Shown one piece after another: positions 1-11,187 of a stretch of DNA of 12,053 nucleotides (the first letter of the stretch is position 1; each line of letters starts with the position of its first letter). The notes under the pieces are model-generated. The model saw only the letters and a program-made list of their open reading frames with translations, was not told the DNA's origin and did no database searches. Origin of the DNA: a virus; the UHGV virus genome UHGV-0297898, one strand, 5' to 3'. Both the position numbers and the translations under genes were made by a program.

Positions 1-170
1 ACAATGTATTTCGACACCACATGCGCCAGAAGTCTGACGGACTCATCCTGATTCATCTGGTAGGGATACCCCAGCTCGCGGACATCCTTCCCGGTGGGTT
101 CATCAAACTCCAGTACGGAGAGTGTCTCGCCATGAGCGATAATCGGTTTCTTTAACTCAAGCTCTTTCAT
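1..170 (-). CDS. Phage tail assembly chaperone, N-terminal part (runs off window start)
   Basis: Minus-strand ATG at 170..168 overlaps the tail tube stop (TAATG). Translation MKELELKKPIIAHGETLSVLEFDEPTGKDVRELGYPYQMNQDESVRLLAHVVSKYI remains open to position 1. Position directly after the tube gene and the L.L..PI..GE.L..L.F.EPT..D pattern fit tail assembly chaperones. No start-containing ORF in the track because it is truncated by the window edge. Confidence 0.45.
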   Translation of the reverse strand, partial: MKELELKKPIIAHGETLSVLEFDEPTGKDVRELGYPYQMNQDESVRLLAHVVSKYI

Positions 171-526
171 TACTGGTAATCCCCTTCTTCACCGTGGAAC
201 TCAAGATCAACCGTGCCTTCTTCGGCATTATGGTTCGCTTCGCCGTGCAGCCAGGCGGACGACAATACATAGACCTGACCGTTCGCCAGCTCGGCAGTGA
301 TGGTCATCTCATCAGACGAGGTGATTTTGCTCACCGGAAAATTCTTCGGCACCTTGAAGGTCCCTTTGACATAAGGCGCACGGTGAGTTTCCTTGCGGTC
401 CACTGAACCGTCCAGGCCGATGATGTCATCATTGACCGTCCTGTTCATGGGCACCTCAATGCCGCCGGTCAGCGATAGCTGCTGACCGTCAATTTTGAAA
501 TAACAGGTTCCCCCGATACGGGCCAT
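170..526 (-). CDS. Phage tail tube protein (contractile-tail type)
   Basis: 118-aa ORF, ATG at 526..524, immediately downstream of the sheath gene with 1-nt stop/start overlap (TAATG). Size and position are typical of a myovirus tube protein. Family assignment is from recall of Mu/P2-type tube proteins. Confidence 0.75.
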   Translation of the reverse strand: MARIGGTCYFKIDGQQLSLTGGIEVPMNRTVNDDIIGLDGSVDRKETHRAPYVKGTFKVPKNFPVSKITSSDEMTITAELANGQVYVLSSAWLHGEANHNAEEGTVDLEFHGEEGDYQ

Positions 527-2019
527 TATGCAGACTCCTCTGAATACTGAAGACGGAACTGGTTAACCACGGCAAAGACACGCAACTGGTTAACATAGTC
601 AGGCGGGAACAGCGTGTTCAGGCGGTTCGGATCGCTGGCATCACGCTCCACAACCAGGTACTGCTTAAACAGTTCGTAGTTTTCCACGATCCCCGCACGC
701 TCAAGCTGACGGTAGGTTGTCAGCAGTTCCCCTTTGATCACCGCCGGGGTGACAATCGCCTGACCGGGACCAAAGCGGGTACCGTCGCTGGCAAGCTTGT
801 GACGCCCGTACTTACTGGTAATGACGGATTTCAGTTTGCGCAGTACATACGCACTGGTATACAGCGTCTCGCTGTCGAGATAGCTGTTATCCGCAACCCC
901 GTAAGCGTTTTTCCTGTACGTGGTGACATCACGCTGAATGCGCAGTACCCCGCTTTCGACATACGCCGTTGCCACGCCATGAGACAGCAGGGTCTGTTGT
1001 TCGGTCATCGTGAACCGTTTCCCCTTCGGCGCAGGCAGCATACCCACCAGCTCACCGGTCTGCGTGGGACGTGCCGGATCGTTGCGGATAAACACCGCTG
1101 CGCGGGCGGTACGGCTTGCCGCCAGCTCATCGGCAGGCGTCTGGGTGTCTTTTTCGTACCCCGCCAGGGTAATGTGCTGCTGGTTAAACTGGTCACCTGC
1201 GGTCACCAGTTCTGACAGCGTGCCGATCTTTGCCGTATACACATGACCATACAGCTGACGCGCATAGCTCCAGCGACCGCTGGTATCGTTCATCTCGGTC
1301 ACCAGCGTGTTAACGGAGGCCGTGTCGTTGAACGGCAGGCCGATATAATCAAACGGCTCATCCGCCATTGCAGCCACCGCGCCGGTGAGAACCGGAGCAC
1401 CCGTTCCGGCGGTACCCGTCGCCACGGCAATCTGTACGCCCGCTGGCAGCACTTCGCCCCCACCAAAGCCGTAGTAATTGAGGCTGACAGGAATTTCATT
1501 CCCGCAAAGCCCCTTATGACGCGCGGTCAGTGTGACCACGCCAGCCGAAGATGAGGCCGTAAACGGCAGGGCCGGAACGGCATTGATGGCATCCTGGATA
1601 CTGCTGGCAATCGTCGCAACGTTATCGCCGTTGGTCACCGGTGCCTGCACGCGGGTACGTCCCACATAAACATTCACCGTGCCGCTTTCGGTTGCTTCCC
1701 CGGTCACCGTCAGCGTAACCGTTGCCGCCGCGCCTGTGGCTTCCGGAACGGCAATCACATACAGCTCACCAAACGGGTCGGTCTGGCGATAAGCCTCGAC
1801 CATACGCGCCAGCTGACTTCCCGCACCACAAATCTGGCGTGCATAGTCTGCCGATGGCATCAGCACCAGACTGTTGGCAACAATCTCTGCACCGTTATTG
1901 GCATGACCAATCAGCAGCGATGCTCCGCTGTCCTGTGCAGTATTCGCCGCCGAGTTATCCATTTCCGCATAAAAAATCGGAACCAGCGTATTTGACGGAA
2001 TGGTGTTAAAGCTCGTCAT
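526..2019 (-). CDS. Phage tail sheath protein
   Basis: 497-aa ORF, ATG at 2019..2017 preceded by AGGTG Shine-Dalgarno at about 7 nt. Length and sequence character fit contractile-tail sheath proteins of Mu-like tails; followed directly by the tube gene. Confidence 0.8.
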   Translation of the reverse strand: MTSFNTIPSNTLVPIFYAEMDNSAANTAQDSGASLLIGHANNGAEIVANSLVLMPSADYARQICGAGSQLARMVEAYRQTDPFGELYVIAVPEATGAAATVTLTVTGEATESGTVNVYVGRTRVQAPVTNGDNVATIASSIQDAINAVPALPFTASSSAGVVTLTARHKGLCGNEIPVSLNYYGFGGGEVLPAGVQIAVATGTAGTGAPVLTGAVAAMADEPFDYIGLPFNDTASVNTLVTEMNDTSGRWSYARQLYGHVYTAKIGTLSELVTAGDQFNQQHITLAGYEKDTQTPADELAASRTARAAVFIRNDPARPTQTGELVGMLPAPKGKRFTMTEQQTLLSHGVATAYVESGVLRIQRDVTTYRKNAYGVADNSYLDSETLYTSAYVLRKLKSVITSKYGRHKLASDGTRFGPGQAIVTPAVIKGELLTTYRQLERAGIVENYELFKQYLVVERDASDPNRLNTLFPPDYVNQLRVFAVVNQFRLQYSEESA

Positions 2020-2173
2020 CGGTATTCACCTTTTCATTCACGCGCCGGATATCACCCGCTGCTTCACGGCGCAGCCAGTAGTTGTTCTCGTCAACATTTC
2101 GCCCTTCGGTGGGCAAAAGGTCACCGCGGGCAGGGTCAGGCACTGACCGCCCTTTAACAGGTTTCACAAACAT
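2006..2173 (-). CDS. Small hypothetical ORF (55 aa) in the gap before the sheath gene
   Basis: Hand translation from ATG at 2173..2171: MFVKPVKGRSVPDPARGDLLPTEGRNVDENNYWLRREAAGDIRRVNEKVNTDDEL, stop TAA at 2008..2006. Starts 8 nt after the stop of the upstream 186-aa gene and overlaps the sheath start by 14 nt. No strong SD; not in the ORF track (below its length cutoff). Could be a real small virion-assembly gene or just the spacer. Confidence 0.25.
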   Translation of the reverse strand: MFVKPVKGRSVPDPARGDLLPTEGRNVDENNYWLRREAAGDIRRVNEKVNTDDEL

Positions 2174-2181
2174 GAAGATTC

Positions 2182-2742
2182 TCAGGAAGGAAGGGTTATT
2201 TCGGTGTGATGTTCGATATCGCCGTCAGGCCCGTTACCGGGATCGAGATAATCAACATCAATCGCCAGCGTTTGCAGTTCATCCAGACTGTTCAGATCAT
2301 CCTGCTGGCGGGTATCGTCTTCAGTCAGCTCGCTGATGACCGAAAAATCGAACTGATAAATCAGCTCATGACGATTCAGATCCAGCAGCGTGCCGCCGTC
2401 ATAGGTAATCGGGTTACCGCACGCCTCCGGGTTCCAGCCCAGCAGAGCCTTAAAGAGCATCTGCCGGACATCGTCCACCACATCATACGAGGCAAACTGA
2501 CCGCGCTCATCACGCCCGTTACTCAGTATGACAACCACGGAGAAACCCTCTTTCAGCTCCTGCCAGTAGTCGGTCTGGCTTTTGTTTTCTCCCGGAGAAT
2601 CATCACCCGGTACAACATATGCCGCAGGGAGTTTCAGCTTTCCGACCTCCGGCAGATTTTTGAACTGGGCCGCGCCTGCAACCCGGTATTCAAAATACGG
2701 ACAGCGGGCACGCAGTGCAGCAATAACAGGCGTCAGTTTCAT
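2182..2742 (-). CDS. Putative neck / tail-terminator (tail completion) protein
   Basis: 186-aa ORF, ATG at 2742..2740 overlapping the stop of the gp10-like gene (ATGA). Position between neck genes and sheath. Central region resembles the tail-terminator fold (compare lambda gpU region ...YLTGAEYTGEELDSDTWQAELHIEVF with ...YVVPGDDSPGENKSQTDYWQELKEGFSVVVIL). Acidic C-terminal tail. Function call is tentative. Confidence 0.5.
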   Translation of the reverse strand: MKLTPVIAALRARCPYFEYRVAGAAQFKNLPEVGKLKLPAAYVVPGDDSPGENKSQTDYWQELKEGFSVVVILSNGRDERGQFASYDVVDDVRQMLFKALLGWNPEACGNPITYDGGTLLDLNRHELIYQFDFSVISELTEDDTRQQDDLNSLDELQTLAIDVDYLDPGNGPDGDIEHHTEITLPS

Positions 2743-3245
2743 CTGTGTCGTCGCTCCGGCTTCAGTGATTTACGCAATTCCCGCGCCAGAAAATAGCGTG
2801 TCCAGCTGCGGTTCTTTTCAAGCGTTTCCACCATGAAGTTATTACGTGGAGCCAGTCGCCAGCCGCTGCCACCGGATGCACCACGATGATGGCTGCGACG
2901 ACGCTTTGCCCCTCGCCTCACGCCATAGAACAAAAAAGCCGGATAAAAATCACCGGTGATACGGCGGTTTCCCTCTCCATTACGCTGGTTAGGGGCTATA
3001 CGTGCCATAAAACCAGGGCGATGTTTACTGGCTCTGGGTACCATGTAACCAATCGAACGAGCCAGGCGTCCGGTCTGATAACCGGGGTTTTCACCCGGTG
3101 CCGACCGCGCACGGCGCATCACCAGCCGACGGGCATCACGCATATGACGCTGACCAATCGTGACAAACGCCCGCCGGACACGGGCGCGGTTAAAGCGCAT
3201 CTCCGCGGGCTGCTGAAAATCAACGTGCAAAAAGGAAGTCGTCAT
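2739..3245 (-). CDS. HK97 gp10-family virion protein (tail-completion / neck)
   Basis: 168-aa basic protein, ATG at 3245..3243 with strong GGAGG SD 5 nt upstream. Contains ...ARIAPNQRNGEGNRRITGDFYPAFLFYGVRRG..., typical of the HK97-gp10-like family. Overlaps the preceding gene's 3' end by 26 nt. Confidence 0.6.
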   Translation of the reverse strand: MTTSFLHVDFQQPAEMRFNRARVRRAFVTIGQRHMRDARRLVMRRARSAPGENPGYQTGRLARSIGYMVPRASKHRPGFMARIAPNQRNGEGNRRITGDFYPAFLFYGVRRGAKRRRSHHRGASGGSGWRLAPRNNFMVETLEKNRSWTRYFLARELRKSLKPERRHR

Positions 3246-3630
3246 TGTTGCCTCCGTGACTCTGCCTACATTCGCCCAGCTCCGTACACTCCAGCAGCAG
3301 AAAGCGCCGCGCCCCGTTCAGATCGCGCTGACGTTTCACCCGGTACACACTGTCACCGCAGACCACCTCATAATCAGCGGTGATCCCCCGGCGGTAACGA
3401 ATGGTGATGTAATGGGTGATGGCGTCCCCGGTCTGCGCGGTTTCCTGCCAGGTGGTGGCACTGGTCTGGATAACCTTCGCCCATGTCCGGAACGTAACCG
3501 GGTATTGAGGCTCCACGCCAAAGTTATCCGCGGGCATATCCACCCGCAGGCGGATCAGGACGCGTTTATTCAGTTCACCGGGGTCCGGCAGAATGTAGGT
3601 TGCGCTGGTCTGCGCCTGACGAATTTTCAT
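3220..3630 (-). CDS. Head closure / head-tail adaptor protein (HK97 gp7-like)
   Basis: 136-aa ORF, ATG at 3630..3628 overlapping the connector stop (ATGA). Sequence (MKIRQAQTSATYILPDPGELNKRVLIRLR...RFLLLECTELGE) and position after the gp6-like connector fit the head-tail joining family. Confidence 0.6.
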   Translation of the reverse strand: MKIRQAQTSATYILPDPGELNKRVLIRLRVDMPADNFGVEPQYPVTFRTWAKVIQTSATTWQETAQTGDAITHYITIRYRRGITADYEVVCGDSVYRVKRQRDLNGARRFLLLECTELGECRQSHGGNNDDFLFAR

Positions 3631-3950
3631 TGCGGAAAGTACCTGTACGGGCCGACAAGCCAGCCAAAACTCTGCGGCATGTCGAGTTTCTCCACTTCCG
3701 TAACCGACGAGCGGTTTTCGTAAAAATGGCTGATAAGCATCAGCATCCCCAGACGAATATCATCCGGCAGGTGCAGCCCGTCCGGATCGCTGTCCGGAAT
3801 GGTTTCATCCGGTGCATAGAGCTTCCGGTTCAGATACGTTTCCGTCCGCTTTTGTGCCGCATAGGCCAGCAGTTGCAGATGGCGGTCATCAGCATCGAAA
3901 TCCTCATCCAGCCGGAGTTGGGCTTTAATCTCTTCCATTGTCAGAAGCAT
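3627..3950 (-). CDS. Head-tail connector protein (HK97 gp6-like)
   Basis: 107-aa ORF, ATG at 3950..3948, 2 nt after the stop of the upstream 66-aa ORF. N-terminus MLLTMEEIKAQLRLDEDFDADDRHLQLLAYAA is characteristic of gp6-like connector / DNA-packaging proteins. Confidence 0.65.
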   Translation of the reverse strand: MLLTMEEIKAQLRLDEDFDADDRHLQLLAYAAQKRTETYLNRKLYAPDETIPDSDPDGLHLPDDIRLGMLMLISHFYENRSSVTEVEKLDMPQSFGWLVGPYRYFPQ

Positions 3951-3952
3951 AC

Positions 3953-4153
3953 TCAGCCCTCTTTACTGGTCGTGGCTTTTTTCTCTTTTGTCGCTTTACT
4001 GCTTTTTGCACTGGTTCCGCGCTCTGCTAACCCGGCCTGAAGTGCAACCTCCTGCACCCGGGCAGGAAGCGCCCCGTCGTCATACTCACCGGCCCGAATG
4101 ACCTCAACACGCATACCGTCCGGTGACCATTTCAGATCTTGTTTCAGGATCAT
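3953..4153 (-). CDS. Hypothetical small protein (66 aa) with Lys/Ser/Thr-rich C-terminus
   Basis: ATG at 4153..4151; sits between major capsid and connector genes; tightly packed with the downstream gene (TGAgtATG). No recognisable family. C-terminal tail SAKSSKATKEKKATTSKEG is low-complexity and basic. Confidence 0.4.
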   Translation of the reverse strand: MILKQDLKWSPDGMRVEVIRAGEYDDGALPARVQEVALQAGLAERGTSAKSSKATKEKKATTSKEG

Positions 4154-4172
4154 GATTCTTCACCCATCAGAA

Positions 4173-4196
4173 CAGGGGCGCGGTTCCGCGCCCCTG
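4173..4196 (-). terminator. Perfect 10-bp GC-rich hairpin just downstream of the major capsid gene (possible partial terminator or RNA stability element)
   Basis: Plus strand CAGGGGCGCG-gttc-CGCGCCCCTG (10 bp stem at 4173-4182 / 4187-4196, 4-nt loop) lies 6 nt after the capsid stop at 4202. On the transcribed strand it is followed by TTCTGAT, only a weak U-tract. Confidence 0.4.
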
Positions 4197-4201
4197 AGTG
4201 A

Positions 4202-5407
4202 TTACGCCACTGCAATCTTCAGCAGTTTGATGGCCTGCGAATCGACCAGCATGCCGCCGGTGCGTTTGGTGGTATAAAAACCGACAAACGGTTTATTGGT
4301 GTACGGGTCACGCAGAATGCGGGTGCCGATACGGTCAACGATGGTGTAACCCCGTTTGAAGTTACCAAATGCAATGGCTTTCGCATCAGCGGCGATATCC
4401 GGCATCTGTTCGTTTTCAGCGATACCGTAACCCGCCAGAGAGGACGGCTGCCCCAGTTCCAGCCCCGGACGCCACAGATAGTTACCCTCGGTGTCTTTCA
4501 GCAGACGGATGGCAAACAGGCTGTTGTTGTTCATCATGAACTTCGCGCCAGTGCGGTGTGCCTTTCGCAGCGTGTAAATCAGTTTGATAATGGCGTCTGC
4601 GGTCACCGCAGTCGCGTCGCCGGATACAATATGCTGAAGTTTGCCGAACGCCCGGACCTTATCGGTTTCATCCGTGGATTCATACGCCAGGAACCCTTTC
4701 GGCTTCTTGGTACCATCGCCGGTGGTAAAGGCAATTTCTTCCTGTTCGGCAAATTCGGTTGCCAGCTCGCTGTTGATCCAGGCCTCCACGTTGAAAAAGG
4801 CATCATCCAGCATTTTCTGGGTGGCCTGCGGGTTACCGTAGATTTCCCCCATGAAAGGTTCAATCAGCCCCAGTTTTGAGGTGGCAGTTTGGGAGCGCGC
4901 GTCAGTCTCGCCAACCCATCCGGAAGCCGTGCCGCCCAGATTCACCAGTTTTTTGTAGTCGGAACCACCAACGGTGATCACCGTGGCTTCCTGACGCATC
5001 ACCACTTCATCTTTCAGCAGGTTAAGAATGTTGCGATCCAGTTCTTCCGGCACGGCGTAGCCACCGTCTTCATCGGTGCCCACCTGCAATGCCTTACGCT
5101 CCAGATCGCGCAGACCGTCTTCACGGCCTTTACGCAGGAAGCCCACAAACGCCTCTTTATGCTCGGTGGCCAGTTTATTTTGCGCACCACCTGCCGGACG
5201 TTTCAGCTCAAGCAGCTCTTTTTCAAGATCGCTTTTGAGGTTTTCCAGCTCGCTGAGTTTCCCGTTCAGGGTTTCCACCTGCCCGGCAAGTTTGCCTTTT
5301 TCCTGCTCAATCGCATCCACGCGCTTGTCGTTCTTTGCTTTGAAGTCGTCAAACTTCTGCTGCAGCTCCTGCGCGACCTGTTCGACATCTTTAATATCAA
5401 CCGCCAT
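4202..5407 (-). CDS. Major capsid protein, HK97 fold, with N-terminal coiled-coil scaffolding (delta) domain
   Basis: 401-aa ORF, ATG at 5407..5405 with AGGAG SD 7 nt upstream. N-terminal about 100 aa is strongly coiled-coil (…KLSELENLKSDLEKELLELK…) as in HK97 gp5 delta domain, followed by a capsid-like body. Located directly after the prohead protease. Confidence 0.9.
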   Translation of the reverse strand: MAVDIKDVEQVAQELQQKFDDFKAKNDKRVDAIEQEKGKLAGQVETLNGKLSELENLKSDLEKELLELKRPAGGAQNKLATEHKEAFVGFLRKGREDGLRDLERKALQVGTDEDGGYAVPEELDRNILNLLKDEVVMRQEATVITVGGSDYKKLVNLGGTASGWVGETDARSQTATSKLGLIEPFMGEIYGNPQATQKMLDDAFFNVEAWINSELATEFAEQEEIAFTTGDGTKKPKGFLAYESTDETDKVRAFGKLQHIVSGDATAVTADAIIKLIYTLRKAHRTGAKFMMNNNSLFAIRLLKDTEGNYLWRPGLELGQPSSLAGYGIAENEQMPDIAADAKAIAFGNFKRGYTIVDRIGTRILRDPYTNKPFVGFYTTKRTGGMLVDSQAIKLLKIAVA

Positions 5408-5421
5408 CGTATTTCTCCTGA

Positions 5422-6057
5422 TTAGAAGTTCAGATTTTTCAGTGCATTCAGTGCAGAGCCCACATCCTCAGCGTCGCGCAGGGACAGTGCGCCATAGCCC
5501 CCGGCCATGAATGTCGACCTCTGGGAAGTCAGTCTGGTGACGTTTCCGTCTAACGACGAGGCGCGGATCAGCGACGTCAAGAACGCGCTGGCCCGCGGGG
5601 AAATCCCCGAACAGAAAAAAATCGAAAGAGTCCTGCGTGATGTCGGACTCTCCCGTTCTTTCAGCAGAAAGGCTTCTTTCGTCTGGTCGTATTCCCAGTC
5701 CTTCAGGACGTACCCAATAGAAAGGCCGGTTAACGAACCGGCCTTCATGTGTGCATGTGCGCGTTTTGCCAGAGGATCATCATCAATGAGCAACCGCCCC
5801 CTGACGTAAAGCCCGACATCGTCTTCCTTCATTTCGGTGTAAACACCGATGGGCTCATCCATGCGGTGCTGCCAGAGCAGCGCAGGTAACGCTTTTCTGT
5901 CACTCCACGCCCGCAGGGAAGCAGCAAATGCCCCGGACATCACCACATCATCGTGGCTGTCCTTTACACCAAAGACGGAGCCATACCCTTCAAACTCACC
6001 GGAGTCACTGACAGATTTCAGACTCAGCGGTACATCAAGACGTTGTTTCGTCTGCAT
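5422..6057 (-). CDS. Prohead (head maturation) protease, HK97 family, with C-terminal region disrupted by a local inversion
   Basis: Catalytic-domain sequence …GEFEGYGSVFGVKDSHDDVVMSGAF…ALPALLWQHRMDEPIGVYTEMKEDDVGLYVRG…GLSIGYVLKDWEYDQTKEAFLLKE is typical of the family. Preferred start is ATG at 6057..6055 (AGAAGGA SD 8 nt upstream), not the track's ATG at 6093 which has no SD and overlaps the portal gene by 59 nt. After LLKE the minus-strand frame reads 48 residues of low-complexity sequence (RESPTSRRTLSIFFCSGISPRASAFLTSLIRASSLDGNVTRLTSQRST) before resuming a plausible C-terminus; the expected motif is on the opposite strand (see feature 5512..5656). Confidence 0.7.
   Translation of the reverse strand: MQTKQRLDVPLSLKSVSDSGEFEGYGSVFGVKDSHDDVVMSGAFAASLRAWSDRKALPALLWQHRMDEPIGVYTEMKEDDVGLYVRGRLLIDDDPLAKRAHAHMKAGSLTGLSIGYVLKDWEYDQTKEAFLLKERESPTSRRTLSIFFCSGISPRASAFLTSLIRASSLDGNVTRLTSQRSTFMAGGYGALSLRDAEDVGSALNALKNLNF
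5512..5656 (+). other. Inverted segment inside the protease gene: plus strand encodes the conserved protease C-terminal motif
   Basis: Plus-strand translation across this segment is (N)VDLWEVSLVTFPSNDEARISDVKNALARGEIPEQKKIERVLRDVGLSR, the canonical L.EVSLV..P.N.EA.I C-terminal strand of HK97-family prohead proteases, while all flanking protease sequence is on the minus strand. Re-inverting 5512..5656 (or 5513..5655) gives a continuous minus-strand ORF …AFLLK(D/E)VDLWEVSLVTFPSNDEARISDVK…GLSRFMAGGYGALSLRDAEDV…. Boundaries are approximate to within a few nt. Confidence 0.6.
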
Positions 6058-7276
6058 TGGCGTTATCCTTCTGCTTACCGGCTTTACTGCCATCGGAGGG
6101 TTTCGTGGTCATGTTCATCGGTGTGAGATAGACATCCCCACCGGGACGCGGATTCATATCTTCCAGGTCGCGGCAGTCATTGGGAGAGTAAATTCCCCAG
6201 TTAATCCCGGTGGCGTAGGCTTCAAAACGGGACTTCATATCCCCGCGCAGTAACGCCCCGGCGTTAAATTTGGCGTAATAAACGCCCTGCTTACTTTTTC
6301 GTACCAGTCCGGTGTTGATCCGCTGTTCGATGCGGGTCAGATACGGCACCAGTGAATAGTTGATAAATCCGAGCCCCAGTTCTTCGATATTGTTGAAGGT
6401 GGCGCGATCGGTGTTCTGCACCATGTGCAACGGTACCCGGAACAGACGACAGATTTCTTCAAGCTGAAACTTGCGGGTTTCCAGGAACTGGCTGTCCTCG
6501 GCGTTCAGCGCCATCGACTTCCAGTCCAGCCCCATCTCAAGGATCATCGGGCGGTGAGCATTGCCAAGCCCGGTGTGACGCTCCTCAAAATCTTTCTTCA
6601 GGCGCTCATAAGCCTGATCTGACAGCGTCTGCTCTGTACGCAACACACCCGACGTCACCGCACCATTGCTGAACAGTCTGGCCCCGTGCTCTTCAGTCGC
6701 TGCCGCCAGCGATATTGCCTCGCGGGCATAGGCGACGGGATTCAGCCCCACCAGTCCGTCCAGCGTCAGCGTGCGCACATGCCAGATATCCTCCTGGCTC
6801 AGCACATCCGTGGAGCCGTCCGGGAATGTGACCTGATAGACCGGCTCCCAGCTACTGTTAAGCTTCGGTACCACACAGCCGGGATCGACGGGCAGCAGTT
6901 CAGCCACTTCGCCAAATGCTTTCACTTTGTAGGCGTAAAAGTTTCCCCGCAGGCACAGACAGGTGACCACCAGCTCCCAGAACTCCTGCGGCGTCATATA
7001 GCCATTGGGATGCGTGGAGATCAGCTTATGCAGACGTTCGCCGGTGGCCCTCTGTTTCAGGCTGCCGTTCAGGTGATACAGATTGCAGGGCAACATCCCG
7101 ACCGACTCTGCCAGCACCCTGACGCAGGAAAAAACCGCCGTCAGTCGCATGGCCCGCTGGCTGCTGATCTGCTTTCCGGTATAGGTGTCATATGACAGCC
7201 CGATAGCATCCGCCAGCTCTGCTGGCGTGGTCACCGGCGCGTCACTTTTTCGTTGAAATAATCCCGAAAAGAACAC
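6035..7276 (-). CDS. Portal protein, HK97 family
   Basis: 413-aa ORF. Start is GTG at 7276..7274 with strong GGAGG SD 6 nt upstream; its G overlaps the TAG stop of the upstream small ORF (TAGTG). Length and content (…EEICRLFRVPLHMVQNTDRATF…) fit HK97-type portals; positioned between terminase and protease. Confidence 0.85.
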   Translation of the reverse strand: MFFSGLFQRKSDAPVTTPAELADAIGLSYDTYTGKQISSQRAMRLTAVFSCVRVLAESVGMLPCNLYHLNGSLKQRATGERLHKLISTHPNGYMTPQEFWELVVTCLCLRGNFYAYKVKAFGEVAELLPVDPGCVVPKLNSSWEPVYQVTFPDGSTDVLSQEDIWHVRTLTLDGLVGLNPVAYAREAISLAAATEEHGARLFSNGAVTSGVLRTEQTLSDQAYERLKKDFEERHTGLGNAHRPMILEMGLDWKSMALNAEDSQFLETRKFQLEEICRLFRVPLHMVQNTDRATFNNIEELGLGFINYSLVPYLTRIEQRINTGLVRKSKQGVYYAKFNAGALLRGDMKSRFEAYATGINWGIYSPNDCRDLEDMNPRPGGDVYLTPMNMTTKPSDGSKAGKQKDNANADETTS

Positions 7277-7458
7277 TATTTACCTCCGCCGACAGACGAC
7301 TGTGTACGGTCAAGATATCGCGCCACCAGCCACGACCAGAACAGGCACAACGCCCCGGCAACAACAAACCCCGCCGGGGGATAAATCAGCCAGGCACCAT
7401 ACGCCAGCAAAAGCGCCCCCAGCACGCCCACCAGAGGCGCGAGAATCAGCATGATCAT
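7276..7458 (-). CDS. Small predicted membrane protein (60 aa, two hydrophobic helices)
   Basis: ATG at 7458..7456 with GAGGT SD about 5 nt upstream, 11 nt after the terL stop. Sequence [60 protein letters not shown] is almost entirely hydrophobic. Exactly fills the gap between terL and portal with coupled stop/start. Confidence 0.45.
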
Positions 7459-7469
7459 AATTACCTCAG

Positions 7470-9203
7470 TTAAAGCGAGCGGATCCCATAGGACTCAATG
7501 TGGTCAGACAACGTGTCTTCTTTCTCGTACAGCATGGCTCTGCCAACCGCCATAATCAGCGCAACTGCACCATCGATTTTGTTTTCCGCCTGCTCTTTAA
7601 CGGGCTTCACCACATCATCGTTACCCGGAATGGTTTTGCCGACCACGTTGCCGATACACCAGGTCATGATGGGATTGCCATCATGATGAAAGCGCCCCGA
7701 TTCAATTGCCGCTTCCAGCTCTTTCATCGGGTCGGACATGTTGGTGTAGTTCTGAATGATAGTGATGGGGTTCAGGTCTTCATCAGCAAGGTCATGTGAC
7801 AACCCGGTCGCCCCGAAGGGGTCGATGGGTGACTCACTGACCGGGCTGATTTTGTTCGCCGCTTTGGCCTCCTCGAGGATGTAGCGATAATCCACCTCCG
7901 CACCATCGGTAACGGTCAGAACGCCCATTTCCACCCATTTCTGAAAGCGTTCGGCTGTCCGTCGATCTTCATTTTTCTCGACGCTGTACACCGTGTCATA
8001 CGGTACCCAGAAACGCGGGGCCACACTGTAGTAATGCGTTTTACCGTCAATCTCGCGGGTATAAAGTCGCGCCATGCTGTTCATATCCAGCTTACGCGCC
8101 AGGTCAAAGGCCAGAATGCACGGCTGCCCCTCGAACTGCTCAAGGGTCAGTGATTTATCCTCGCAGCTCTGCCAGCTCACCAGGTTGAAATACGCCGAAC
8201 GCGCCGACACCCAGATATTGAGGTGTTTTGTTTTAAAGACGTTTGCCAGACGGGCGTTATTTTTCGCACGCTGCTGCTGACTTAACAAAAATTCGCGATA
8301 AACCGACACGCCAATATTTGGATTGGCTTTTTCCAGCACCTGCGGGTCGGTCCAGTCGTCACCTTCATCAACGGTATAGATGATCCCGAACAGTTCATCG
8401 TTAGGCACCGAGCCGTTGAGCATCTCGATGACTTCCCGCCGTTTGTCGTAGCACGGCCCCTCAATGTTGTACCCGGCGGTAGTGATAGCCCACATCAGTG
8501 GCTGACGTCGCGCCCCCATCCCGGTAAGCATCGTGGTGTAAAGCGCATCTGTGGCGTGCTCGTGATATTCATCCACCACCGCACAGTGGGGTGATGAACC
8601 ATCACCGGGGTTACAGATCAGCGGTTCAAAACGCGCACCATCCTCCGGACGGTTCATGTTTGAGGCGTTAACCTCAATCCCGAACGCTTCCGTCAGCATG
8701 GGTGTGCGTTTACACATCAGTCTTGCCGGACGAAAGACTTCCCATGCCTGTTTCTCCGTCGTGGCACCGGAATACACTTCCGCGCCGAACTCGTTATCAC
8801 AGGCAAAACAATACAGGGCGACACCGGCAGAGATTGCCGATTTGCCGTTCTTACGGGGGATTTCGGTATACACCTCACGGAAGCGGCGCAGCCGGGAGCC
8901 TTTATTGACCCAGCCAAACGCGCAGCAGATCACAAAGAGCTGCCACGGCTCCAGCGTGATGGGCATCCTCTTAAATGCCCACTCACCCTTGGTGTGCGGC
9001 AACAGCTGAATAAATTTCGCGGCCCGTTCAGCCAGGTCCTTGTCGAAGCGGTAACGAAACGACTTACTTTTTTCCTCCATTAGGTCATCAAGATGGCGCT
9101 GGCAGGCCTGAATCACAAACTGGCAGGCCACAATCTTTCCGCGCACGACATCACGGGCATACTGATTGGCAGCATTTACGTTGGGGTAAGATTTCCGGCT
9201 CAT
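7470..9203 (-). CDS. Terminase large subunit
   Basis: 577-aa ORF, ATG at 9203..9201 overlapping the terS stop (ATGA). Contains Walker A-like PRKNGKS and Walker B-like CAVVDEYHE motifs in the N-terminal ATPase region; followed by the portal gene. Confidence 0.9.
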
Positions 9204-9694
9204 GATTCGATGATTTTCAGAAACGGGTTAGTGGCTTTCTTCTGCCCCGCCAGGCCAATCAGACGCTGGCGGCTGCTGGGGTCGAGTCCGAGCATTGCCC
9301 CCGTACTGCTCATCTCGGACTCCTGTTCTTTTTTGGCGGTCAGCTCCGGATTTTTGACCATACCGCCCATTGCACCGGTGATGGTGTTGCCCTGTCTGGC
9401 AATATTTTTCACGGCACGTCGCCAGAACTCGTAGGCCACGCACCACCGCTCAAGCACCGCGAGGTCAGTCACGCACAGCAGGCCCTGACCGCAGAGTTCT
9501 TTAGTTGTCAGTTGCCACATGATCGTAGCGAGAGGGAGATCTTCTTCAGCGAACCACTCCGGTGGCTCAACACCTTTGATGGGCGTAAAAACAGGTTCAT
9601 CTTTATTCAGGGCTCGCTTGCCGGGGTTTCCGGCCAGCGCCTTGCGCGCCGTTGGCTTGGGGCGACGCCCGGAACGCCCCGCCGTTCCAGCCAT
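9200..9694 (-). CDS. Terminase small subunit (P27-family-like)
   Basis: Preferred start is ATG at 9694..9692 (AGGAG SD 8 nt upstream), giving 164 aa beginning [36 protein letters not shown]. The track's start at 9703 is a GTG that lies inside the SD. Basic N-terminus and position upstream of terL fit terS. Confidence 0.8.
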
Positions 9695-9730
9695 ATGCGG
9701 CACTCCTGGTTAAATTTCATTTTTCGCGGG

Positions 9731-9800
9731 TATAAAAAAACGATGGGGCGGGCAGTCCGGAAGACGTCAGGCCGCAGGGATTTGACCCGCCCCTCCCCTC
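9731..9800. other. Candidate cos / terminase recognition region: A-tract plus GC-rich 8-bp inverted repeat
   Basis: GGGGCGGG (9745-9752) and CCCGCCCC (9786-9793) form an inverted repeat separated by 33 nt that contains a GACGTC palindrome; an A7 tract lies at 9734-9740. Located in the 125-bp HNH-terS intergenic space, where cos sits in HK97-like phages. The start GGGGCGGGCAG loosely resembles GC-rich lambdoid cohesive ends. Placement is positional inference only. Confidence 0.3.
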
Positions 9801-9819
9801 AGGAAGTTGAGAATCATTA

Positions 9820-10170
9820 TCACTTCAACCGTTCACGGGCCGTCTTCGCCTTATGACACGGCCAGCACAGACTCTGCAGATTACAGTCGGCATCAGTGCC
9901 GCCATGCGCTTTAGGGATGATGTGGTCAACGGTTTTCGCTTCACGCACCACACCGGCACGCAGACATAACTGACATAAACCTTTGTCACGTTTCAGTACA
10001 CGTTCACGGATAGCATCCCATTTCGAACCGTAGCCGCGCTGATGACGGGATTGTCCTGGCTTGTATTGCTTCCAGCCTTCGCTTTTGTGGCTTTCGCAGT
10101 AGCCTGACGGGTCAGTAGTGGTATGGCGGCAGCCGCGAACGCGGCAGGATTTTGGGATTCGTGGTGGCAT
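9820..10170 (-). CDS. HNH endonuclease (terminase-associated)
   Basis: 116-aa ORF, ATG at 10170..10168. Cys-rich N-terminus (CRVRGCRH…CESH) and C-terminal HNH motif DHIIPKAHGGTDADCNLQSLCWPCHKAK. Lies immediately upstream of terS, the arrangement of HNH-dependent cos-packaging phages. Confidence 0.85.
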   Translation of the reverse strand: MPPRIPKSCRVRGCRHTTTDPSGYCESHKSEGWKQYKPGQSRHQRGYGSKWDAIRERVLKRDKGLCQLCLRAGVVREAKTVDHIIPKAHGGTDADCNLQSLCWPCHKAKTARERLK

Positions 10171-10195
10171 TGAAGAAAACTCTTTGTAATAAGCA

Positions 10196-10218
10196 TAAAA
10201 ACCCCATATTGAATGGGG
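10196..10218 (-). terminator. Rho-independent terminator-like hairpin downstream of the moron ORF
   Basis: On the minus strand: CCCCAT-tcaat-ATGGGG followed by TTTTTAT (plus-strand stem 10202-10207 / 10213-10218, A-tract 10196-10201). Sits about 10 nt after the stop of the 168-aa ORF and just upstream of the HNH start. Confidence 0.45.
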
Positions 10219-10227
10219 CTTGATGAA

Positions 10228-10734
10228 TTACTGTCCTAAAGCACTTTTTGCCAATATTGAAGCAATTGAAGCAAACGTCGGATTTTCCAATAGCTTTTGC
10301 CAAAGGCTTTTAACCTCTGGATCATTGCAATGCTCTATAGCATCATGTAGTTGTTGAATGGTTATATTCTTTGTGATCGAATTATCATTACCGGCTTGAA
10401 AATCACCACCAGCATTAATAGCACCGTTAAACGTCAAATGGGTCGTAATCTGCTTCGGCTTCTCTTTTACATCCAATGCCTTCACTATCAATACCGCCAA
10501 ATGTGAGTAGCCAGGGCAACCAACCTCGAGACTAATTTGCACCTCGTAATCAAGCACTTCAAATAGTCTTTCCCTGTCGACCATTTTTTGCACAATGATA
10601 TCGCCGATATTAAATGGGCATAAGTCACTTTCAATAGGAATATACAATCGGCCTTTAGATGAGTCACGTTGACCATAATAGGTGGATGAATTAAAGGTAA
10701 AAGTATCTGGATAGAAAAATTGATCTGGTCTCAT
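10228..10734 (-). CDS. Hypothetical protein (168 aa) encoded in an AT-rich moron island; function unknown
   Basis: ATG at 10734..10732 with weak AAGGGA SD. Protein MRPDQFFYPDTFTFNSSTYYGQRDSSKGRLYIPIESDLCPFNIGDIIVQKMVDRERLFEVLDYEVQ… has no signal peptide or TM segment and no motif I can assign. The gene and its flanks are visibly AT-rich compared with surrounding phage genes, and it has its own promoter-like and terminator elements. Confidence 0.6.
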   Translation of the reverse strand: MRPDQFFYPDTFTFNSSTYYGQRDSSKGRLYIPIESDLCPFNIGDIIVQKMVDRERLFEVLDYEVQISLEVGCPGYSHLAVLIVKALDVKEKPKQITTHLTFNGAINAGGDFQAGNDNSITKNITIQQLHDAIEHCNDPEVKSLWQKLLENPTFASIASILAKSALGQ

Positions 10735-10819
10735 AATAGTCCCTTTTGTGTTTTGTGGATATCTCCATTAATTAGACTATTACTTTATCTCTTTTCCCAA
10801 ATACATACATTCAAAATTA

Positions 10820-10860
10820 AGAGCATTATCACAGATAATTTCGAAGCGATATTGCAATGC
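10820..10860 (-). promoter_or_regulatory. Candidate sigma70 extended -10 promoter for the moron ORF
   Basis: Minus strand reads TGTGATAAT (plus 10825-10833), an extended -10 element, about 90 nt upstream of the moron ATG in a 200-bp AT-rich spacer. A TTGCAA at 10852-10857 is too far (21 nt) to be a canonical -35, so this would act as an extended -10 promoter. Pattern-based only. Confidence 0.3.
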
Positions 10861-10938
10861 CTACCCATGACCTGTATTCAACGAATACGTATCAGAGGAA
10901 TACCTTGTTCGTTATCTACATGACGATAAAAATATACA

Positions 10939-11187
10939 TCAATTTTGATTATCAATGATTCTGATATCTGACTTATCCCTATTACATTGAGCCAACGCGG
11001 ATAACAAACTTACATTCAAATCAAGACTTGCACCATACGTCAGTGGGTTGGGTATAAACGGTACAGGTGTATCAGAAGTCAAGCTGACTGGTAGTGGAGT
11101 CTTCGGAATGCTCACGTAAACTGTTCGCGTACTTCCACAACCGGTCAGCAGCGGCAGCAGGCACAGGGCGTACAGCACAATCATCAT
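10939..11187 (-). CDS. Rz1-like outer-membrane lipoprotein (o-spanin)
   Basis: Internal ATG-ATG at 11187..11182 within the track's longer ORF gives MMIVLYALCLLPLLTGC…, a lipoprotein signal with lipobox LTGC. Mature part is proline-rich (PKTPLPVSLTSDTPVPFIPNPL), typical of Rz1. Starts inside the Rz gene in the +1 frame and runs 133 nt past the Rz stop (overlapped rather than embedded). Confidence 0.6.
   Translation of the reverse strand: MMIVLYALCLLPLLTGCGSTRTVYVSIPKTPLPVSLTSDTPVPFIPNPLTYGASLDLNVSLLSALAQCNRDKSDIRIIDNQN

Follow-up and report, generated by a model that had tools for sequence, protein, structure and literature searches.

The prohead protease gene in the late region of virus genome UHGV-0297898 raises the question why a segment of about 145 bp is encoded on the strand opposite to the remainder of the gene, while the open reading frame (ORF) of the gene nevertheless runs through it. 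The arrangement could reflect a reversible switch, a natural variant of the protease family, damage to a resident prophage, or an artefact. A sequence-only reading of the same DNA had narrowed the choice to a defective prophage or recent rearrangement on the one hand and an assembly artefact on the other, and this is still the choice after comparison with public genome, metagenome and protein collections. The locus probably records one inversion-plus-deletion event, unprogrammed and independent of homology, that struck the protease gene of an E. coli prophage of the SfI/SfII/ST64B type which is otherwise intact. The lesion is almost certainly inactivating, or else a sequencing artefact; it is not a genetic switch. 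Here we describe the rearrangement, its effect on the protein and its likely origin. Throughout, 'the window' is the whole stretch of DNA that was analysed (12,053 nt).

Genomic context and features

The window corresponds to the late region of an E. coli prophage of the SfI/SfII/ST64B type, and every substantial ORF in it lies on the minus strand. Read from the lysis side, the late operon comprises the lysis genes, an HNH endonuclease, the small and large terminase, a small YmfR-like gene and the portal, followed by the prohead protease, the major capsid protein, head-tail connectors, the tail terminator, the tail sheath and the tail tube. The protease gene has the portal gene on one side and the major capsid gene on the other, as in a head-morphogenesis module, and all three lie on the minus strand; the portal gene runs into it with its 3' end, and the major capsid protein is the substrate of the protease. 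The features of the region, with the two junctions of the rearrangement designated J1 and J2, are as follows.

4202..5407, minus strand: major capsid protein gene (401 aa), intact, with one synonymous SNP at 4889
5422..6057, minus strand: HK97-family (Peptidase_S78) prohead protease gene, rearranged; 211 aa from the start annotated in intact relatives
Extending to 6093, minus strand: longest ORF of the rearranged protease, 223 aa
5422..5513, minus strand: unchanged 3' end of the protease gene, in frame; encodes FMAGGYGALSLRDAEDVGSALNALKNLNF and the stop codon
5513..5514: junction J1; flank ...CCATGAATG joined to TCGACCTC..., microhomology 0
5514..5656, plus strand in the ancestral coding sense: inverted block of 142/143 nt (T at 5656 ambiguous); the plus strand encodes (I)DLWEVSLVTFPSNDEARISDVKNALARGEIPEQKKIERVLRDVGLSR
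5514..5656, minus strand: the same block as read within the gene; 48 unrelated residues, RESPTS...TSQRST
5655..5657: junction J2; ...GGACTCTCCCG(T) joined to (T)TCTTTCAGC, with one ambiguous T (1 nt)
5657..6057, minus strand: unchanged 5' part of the protease gene, residues 1-134 (MQTKQ...AFLLKE); colinear with and identical to the reference
6035..7276, minus strand: portal protein gene, intact

Relationship to sequenced genomes

A query of 801 nt around the protease finding matched 1,102 records from E. coli and 19 from phages, the phages including SfI, SfII, SfIV, ST64B, phi467 and vB_EcoM-689R6. All of these align in two pieces with a query coverage of 82%, spanning 816 nt as against the 801 nt of the query. 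In none of the 1,102 E. coli or 19 phage records was the inverted arrangement found, and intact homologues with the same strand arrangement, whose existence the sequence-only reading had named as evidence against itself, are absent from them.

Apart from the lesion, the window agrees over its full 12,053 nt, at ~100% identity, with five complete chromosomes of E. coli (22AR0747, WR3-3, WR14-2, MSB1_6C and S1-JOR-02-A), in each of which the matching stretch measures 12,068 nt, i.e., 15 nt more than the window. In 22AR0747 the intact protease allele is located at NZ_CP195459.1 3032531-3033181. Outside the lesion the comparison with complete genomes revealed four substitutions and no indels, and the freedom from indels therefore indicates a high consensus quality. 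The substitutions are listed below.

720, C>T: tail sheath A434T
4889, C>T: capsid gene, synonymous
8615, C>A: TerL G197C
12030, A>T: within the holin gene

Neither a 30-mer spanning J1 nor a 34-mer spanning J2 occurred in the collections of genomes, metagenomes and viral contigs; the intact junction, which served as positive control for the k-mer search, was present in at least 120 viral contigs. Exact-protein look-up of the rearranged protein in its 223-aa and 211-aa forms (two start codons) found neither on record, and the tail-sheath variant A434T is not on record either.

The closest relative is a metagenome contig (L007; ENA ERZ27272630 k141_78311) that was found via the rare TerL variant G197C. 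It has three of the four rare SNPs of the window (4889, 8615 and 12030), differs at only two other positions, and encodes an intact protease of 216 aa. The contig ends exactly at window position 721, beside the private SNP of the window at 720, which suggests strain mixtures in such metagenome samples. Judged by these distances, the lesion would postdate the split of sequences about two SNPs apart in 11 kb, or would have arisen in the test tube or the computer.

Structure of the rearrangement

BLAST comparison of the window with the intact prophage yields three blocks. Positions 1-5513 and 5656-10172 are colinear with the reference, and positions 5514-5656 match its opposite strand at 100% identity (143/143). 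With E. coli WR3-3 as the reference, the window can be rebuilt exactly, except for the four SNPs, as ref[1..5513] + rc(ref[5527..5669]) + ref[5672..]; a rebuild with rc(5528..5669) + ref[5671..] is equivalent, one T being assignable to either side. The event thus consists of an inversion of 142/143 nt (window 5514-5656) and a net loss of 15 nt. The ancestral bases lost are 13-14 nt at J1, on the capsid-gene side (CTTTGGCCTGGGT[A], the codons for TQAKA), and 1-2 nt at J2, on the portal-gene side. J1 has no microhomology and J2 has 1 nt of it; the corresponding sequences of the intact allele are GGCCATGAATGCTTTGGCC and GAGGTCGATTTCTTTC. The join at J1 forms a new GTCGAC (SalI) site, which was considered as a sign of engineering and rejected as a coincidence, given that the other junction has no such site and that 15 nt were lost.

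BLAST and the exact rebuild bear out the claim that the protease segment is inverted relative to all intact homologues, and mapping of the breakpoints against the closest intact prophage copies, as had been proposed, resolved both the inversion and the 15-nt loss. The breakpoints given earlier (5512..5656) described the inversion 2 nt away from the true ones (5513|5514 and 5655/5656|5657), and the loss had been missed. It had also been stated that flipping 5512..5656 restores a continuous, family-typical protein. The result is indeed continuous, at 211 aa, but it has E134D and I135V at one junction and no TQAKA at the other. When the true block, 5514-5656, is flipped, the losses of 1-2 nt and 13-14 nt at the two junctions shift the frame and bring in stops.

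Inverted repeats bracketing the breakpoints were searched for with a seed of 6 and a minimum length of 7, and none was found in the reference (5513/5527 and 5669/5671) or in the window (5514/5656), in agreement with the earlier view that a site-specific switch is unlikely. The nearest inverted repeat is 8 nt long (TGGGTACG/CGTACCCA), with its right arm 55 nt past the right breakpoint. A 7-bp hairpin (AGAGTCC/GGACTCT) is located 4 nt inside the left inner breakpoint, and CTTTC/GAAAG quasi-palindromes occur just right of J2. A mechanism based on the 8-nt repeat, the hairpin or the quasi-palindromes was dropped, as none of them is aligned with the junctions.

Open reading frame across the inversion

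The minus-strand ORF is open through the inverted block over 48 replaced codons, as had been noticed from the sequence. It is open because the net loss is 15 nt and the antisense frame happens to be free of stops. The '223-aa protease' described before corresponds to the longest ORF, whereas the annotated product measures 216 aa in the intact gene and 211 aa here. An equivalent event (delete 1, invert 142, delete 14) was simulated at every position of 18 reference genes, with the following results.

Whole set of 18 genes, every position: ORF open in 29% of simulated placements
Same codon phase as the real event: ORF open in 15% of simulated placements
Within the protease gene: ORF open in 33% of simulated placements

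Long antisense ORFs are common throughout the window. The prior for a net loss divisible by three is one in three, and the combined coincidence is roughly 5-10%. The open frame is unremarkable; it implies no selection and needs no selective explanation.

An inversion that lies wholly within a gene and leaves the frame open in both orientations carries the 'recoding' signature of intragenic invertons (Chanin et al., bioRxiv 10.1101/2023.03.11.532203), with which the window shares an inversion inside a coding sequence that recodes without introducing a stop. Under this explanation a site-specific recombinase would reversibly flip the segment and thereby recode or silence the protease, as in Bacteroides genes. 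What defines an inverton, however, is a pair of inverted repeats that an invertase recognises, together with a conservative exchange (bioRxiv 10.1101/2023.03.11.532203). The window shows no sign of an invertase site, and no repeat pair brackets the breakpoints in either orientation; bases were lost at both junctions, and the loss of 15 nt makes an exact reversal impossible. Relatives show a single orientation, the canonical one, and this holds for the 1,102 records from E. coli and the 19 from phages as well as for at least 120 viral contigs; an open frame arises by chance in 15-33% of such events. A programmed inverton is very improbable and is effectively refuted.

Effect on the protease

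The intact product of 216 aa, counted from the annotated start, reads ...KEAFLLKE-IDLWEVSLVTFPSNDEARISDVKNALARGEIPEQKKIERVLRDVGLSR-TQAKA-FMAGGYG.... In the rearranged protease, residues 135-187 of the 216 are replaced by 48 antisense-coded residues (RESPTSRRTLSIFFCSGISPRASAFLTSLIRASSLDGNVTRLTSQRST); the frame is kept, and the final 29 residues are back in frame. The Pfam profile Peptidase_S78 (PF04586) matches the intact protein with 111 bits over profile positions 6-158. The window protein scores 78 bits (E = 1.2e-21, cut-off 21 bits) over positions 6-124 of 165 only. Coverage of the whole domain, including the C-terminal L-W-E-V-S strand, is not reached by the window protein, and the missing part is found on the opposite strand, where the translation of the plus-strand ORF 5507-5809 matches Peptidase_S78 positions 133-158 (E = 0.0025). 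The sequence-only reading had assigned the conserved C-terminal strand of the protease to the plus strand and had suggested the comparison with the profile; the similarity it predicted is there.

Alignments with 23-25 homologues show two sets of invariant columns within the replaced stretch, the first comprising L137, W138, E139, V140, S141, V143, T144, F145, N148, D149, E150, A151 and R152, and the second E172-L175, R176, D177, G179, L180 and S181. The putative catalytic residues His64 (LWQH) and Ser113 (GLSIGY) are likewise invariant in the 23-25 homologues; they are located in the unchanged 5' part (5657..6057) and are retained in the window protein. We take them to be the counterparts of His65 and Ser114 of HK97 gp4. 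Duda and colleagues are said to have assigned, in 2013, a targeting role to the C-terminal tail of HK97 gp4. Phage prohead proteases have a third conserved catalytic residue downstream of the Ser, and their C-terminal regions target them into the prohead, as in SPN3US gp245 (PMC7411985). In the present protease that third residue may fall within the lost stretch, with E139 as one candidate.

The structural consequences were assessed on the AlphaFold model of an intact homologue (P0003), whose confidence is moderate, with a mean pLDDT of 72 and values of ~60 or lower in the C-terminal tail. In this model the last core strand comprises residues 129-143 and is followed by helices 148-161, 168-177, 182-194 and 204-212. 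A fold search with the model returned T4 gp21 as the best solved match (PDB 5JBL, E = 2.2e-7, TM 0.63 normalised to target), with herpesvirus proteases next, weakly; a sequence search of the PDB with the protease had given nothing useful. Projected onto the model, the lesion is predicted to remove the second half of the last core beta-strand (129-143, with the invariant LWEVS), the helices 148-161 and 168-177, and half of helix 182-194, in total two of the four tail helices and half of a third. The loss of a core strand that had been proposed from the sequence is thereby supported for the second half of that strand, by the S78 match as well as by the model.

As the helical tail would, if it acts like that of HK97 gp4, bring the protease into the procapsid, and as part of a strand and several helices are lost, the protein is expected to be misfolded and/or not encapsidated. 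The scaffolding domain of the capsid protein would then stay uncleaved, and the prophage would be unable to make infectious heads. On the strength of the profile matches and the model, we strongly infer a loss of function.

It would be a different matter if some HK97-family protease genes naturally had this strand arrangement or this C-terminal sequence. All homologues retrieved, however, have IDLWEVS...GLSRTQAKAFMAG on the gene's own strand, and no support for a family variant was found among them. The inverted peptide, i.e., the 48-residue replacement, is without homologue among 5.8 billion protein clusters, and the S78 profile match is truncated in the window protein. A family variant is extremely improbable and is refuted. 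To judge from sequence and model, the window protease appears to be a broken member of the family and not a functional variant.

Origin of the lesion

The preferred interpretation, an unprogrammed inversion-plus-deletion, most likely describes a one-off lesion that stems from one complex replication or repair error rather than from two separate mutations. In a switch-and-return template switch with the point order 1-3-2-4, synthesis would leave the template at reference position 5513 (point 1), resume on the complementary strand at 5669 (point 2), copy back to 5527/5528 (point 3) and return at 5671/5672 (point 4). The bases between points 1 and 3 (13-14 nt) and between points 2 and 4 (1-2 nt) would never be copied, so that such a switch would explain the inversion and both junctional losses in one step. 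Alternatively, breakage at two sites, trimming of the ends and re-ligation of the flipped fragment could give the same product, but E. coli is not known to have classical NHEJ (Ku/LigD).

In-place inversions are included in the four-point template-switch model of Loytynoja and Goldman (PMC5453318), and a single switch followed by a single return accounts for the changed stretch of the window, as the reverse complement of the reference sequence next to it. Homology that could prime a template switch was not seen at the junctions, where microhomology is 0/1 nt and flanking inverted repeats are absent. The near-zero junction microhomology counts against template switching and against known E. coli end joining alike, being unusual for both.

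A more specific version holds that the lesion is a genuine in-vivo event, either a double template switch that took place in one step and without homology, or a flip mediated by a topoisomerase or by breakage, and that it was caught in a natural E. coli prophage very soon after it happened. We regard this version as tentative and rather unlikely. If true, it would provide a bacterial example, at the scale of 143 nt, of a class of in-place inversions that has so far been catalogued mainly in primate genomes, and it would mean that such events can silently kill genes and yet leave an annotatable ORF.

A serious rival explanation, though the less likely one, is that the inversion and the 15-nt loss were introduced during library preparation, assembly, consensus polishing or later sequence handling, and that the organism carries an intact gene. 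The allele has no counterpart in more than 1,100 near-identical copies or in any collection scanned, the gene is intact in the nearest relative, the junctions are blunt and homology-free in a manner that is atypical of E. coli recombination and matches no known pathway of E. coli, and that nearest relative is a metagenome assembly whose end beside the private SNP at 720 suggests mixed strains. On the other hand, the remaining 12 kb are clean, with 4 substitutions and 0 indels relative to complete genomes, so the consensus is not noisy, and no repeat at the junctions could have misled an assembler. De Bruijn assemblers emit junction k-mers only if these are present in the reads. A chimera would, moreover, need two strand switches within 143 nt and would have to beat the true path, and a simple computational flip would not delete 13-14 nt and 1-2 nt at the ends.

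Comparison with known systems

The rearrangement resembles the lesions of prophage decay in that one disruptive change affects an essential late gene while the prophage is otherwise complete. It differs from them in being a small in-place inversion with an open ORF; none of the other copies shows an inversion. Damaged public copies of the same protease gene include a 67-aa tandem duplication (P0001) and a 13-aa deletion (P0004/P0006), frameshifted copies are P0018 (25 members), P0024, P0113 and P0118, and fusions of the protease to other prophage DNA, following deletions, are found in P0015, P0026, P0027, P0030 and P0043. With so many independently damaged copies in public data, decay of the protease in resident prophages is evidently routine, and only the type of the lesion is unusual here.

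P0026 breaks within 1 nt of an inner breakpoint of the window. A fragile site or IS target was considered on this account and set aside, since one such coincidence is expected by chance (estimate ~0.5, from about ten independent lesions and four breakpoints); in the P0026 contig the protease gene is joined to a tail-fibre gene, which represents a deletion or rearrangement and not an IS.

Short template-switch mutations (Ripley quasipalindromes; the four-point model, PMC5453318) share with the window the replacement, in one event, of a stretch by a nearby reverse complement. The 1-3-2-4 order of the four-point model (PMC5453318) yields an in-place inversion that loses the bases separating point 1 from point 3 and point 2 from point 4, as in the window. 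Classical bacterial template switches, however, need a pre-existing, near-perfect inverted repeat and involve tens of bases, whereas in the window 143 nt would have been copied without a flanking inverted repeat and with a microhomology of at most 1 nt.

The likeness to the HK97 gp4 and T4 gp21 proteases (PF04586; 5JBL) lies in the position of the gene between portal and capsid genes and in the N-terminal 134 residues, which match S78, and the model of the intact homologue matches T4 gp21. In contrast to these proteases, the copy in the window is without S78 positions 125-158 and without most of the helical C-terminal tail.

Significance

The feature is an ordinary non-programmed inactivating rearrangement, of the known kind of prophage decay, or an artefact, and is of low general interest. 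Should reads confirm the lesion, it would be a clean natural case, from E. coli, of a small inversion that arose independently of homology and lost bases at its junctions. Its practical side concerns annotation. Because the ORF in the window is open, automatic annotation would flag no pseudogene; as the score of 78 bits lies well above the cut-off of 21, the gene would be reported by pipelines as an intact 'HK97 family phage prohead protease', and tools that estimate prophage completeness would score the prophage as intact. A check of profile coverage, beyond the score, would catch such cases. For the biology of the prophage the lesion carries little weight, as one more route by which a resident prophage loses capsid building.

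Damaged copies of the protease gene

Among homologues of the HK97-family prohead protease gene located at window 5422-6057 (minus strand), the search of public databases turned up many copies that were damaged independently of one another, several of which carry the plain source name 'HK97 family phage prohead protease'. The homologues concerned are as follows:

P0001, P0004, P0006, P0015, P0018, P0021/22, P0024, P0026, P0027, P0030, P0043, P0113, P0118

The types of damage include a tandem duplication of 67 aa (P0001, E. coli, NCBI), a 13-aa deletion, fusions with other prophage genes, and frameshifts, one of them in a cluster of 25 members, where the site is apparently the A7 run GAACAGAAAAAAATCG. 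The homologue P0010 from Salmonella enterica has 215 aa and includes, at residues ~120-145, the deviating stretch KTGNTTGERSLSAERNRPLGSQSGD, which resembles a frameshift with the reading frame restored about 25 codons downstream. This stretch stands in place of the conserved last strand, i.e., the same strand that is hit in the protease of the window.

The gene of P0026 is broken after ...GGACTCTCCCGTA, at most 1 nt from the inner breakpoint of the window, and beyond the break runs into a tail-fibre (gp53-like) gene. The position is:

L008 3540-3546 (contig carrying the P0026 gene, Logan ERR4843250_67): P0026 break, equal to 5527/5528 of the intact reference copy and to window 5655/5656

Given about ten lesions and four breakpoints, a match this close would turn up by chance with roughly even odds; alternatively, a local fragile site may lie behind it.

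Gene start and inversion junction

In all relatives, the annotated start (MQTKQ...) corresponds to window 6057; the longest protease ORF (223 aa) has its start at window 6093, 12 codons further upstream. Counted from the annotated start, the gene shares 23 nt with the 3' end of the portal gene (6035-7276).

The junction 5513|5514 of the inversion makes a GTCGAC (SalI/HincII) site at window 5513-5518, where the intact gene has GGTCGAT, without the site; this was judged a coincidence. The inversion also makes a new ORF:

5507-5809, plus strand: ORF of 100 aa

It takes its ATG from the flank, continues with the displaced protease segment (MNVDLWEVSLVTFPSNDEARISDVK...) and then reads antisense to the N-terminal part of the protease gene. 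As neither a promoter nor a ribosome-binding site can be recognised for this ORF, it is probably not expressed.

Private substitutions and mosaic structure

The closest relative, the MEGAHIT metagenome contig L007, stops at window 721, exactly one base from the private SNP that the window has at position 720; the resulting tail sheath variant, A434T, gave no record when looked up. Co-existing strains differing at 720 would create a graph branch and thereby produce this contig end. A rare, non-synonymous substitution at window 8615 (codon 197 of the terminase large subunit TerL, GGT>TGT, Gly197Cys), positioned in the ATPase domain, is common to the window and L007 only and is missing from the five complete genomes that otherwise match the window.

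Window 10172-10964, which separates the HNH endonuclease gene from the lysis genes, has no match in E. coli 2014C-3338. This unmatched stretch includes:

10228-10734: hypothetical gene, 168 aa

Past window 10964, the lysis region shows only 86% identity to that of E. coli 2014C-3338. A mosaic boundary of this kind is typical for this prophage family.
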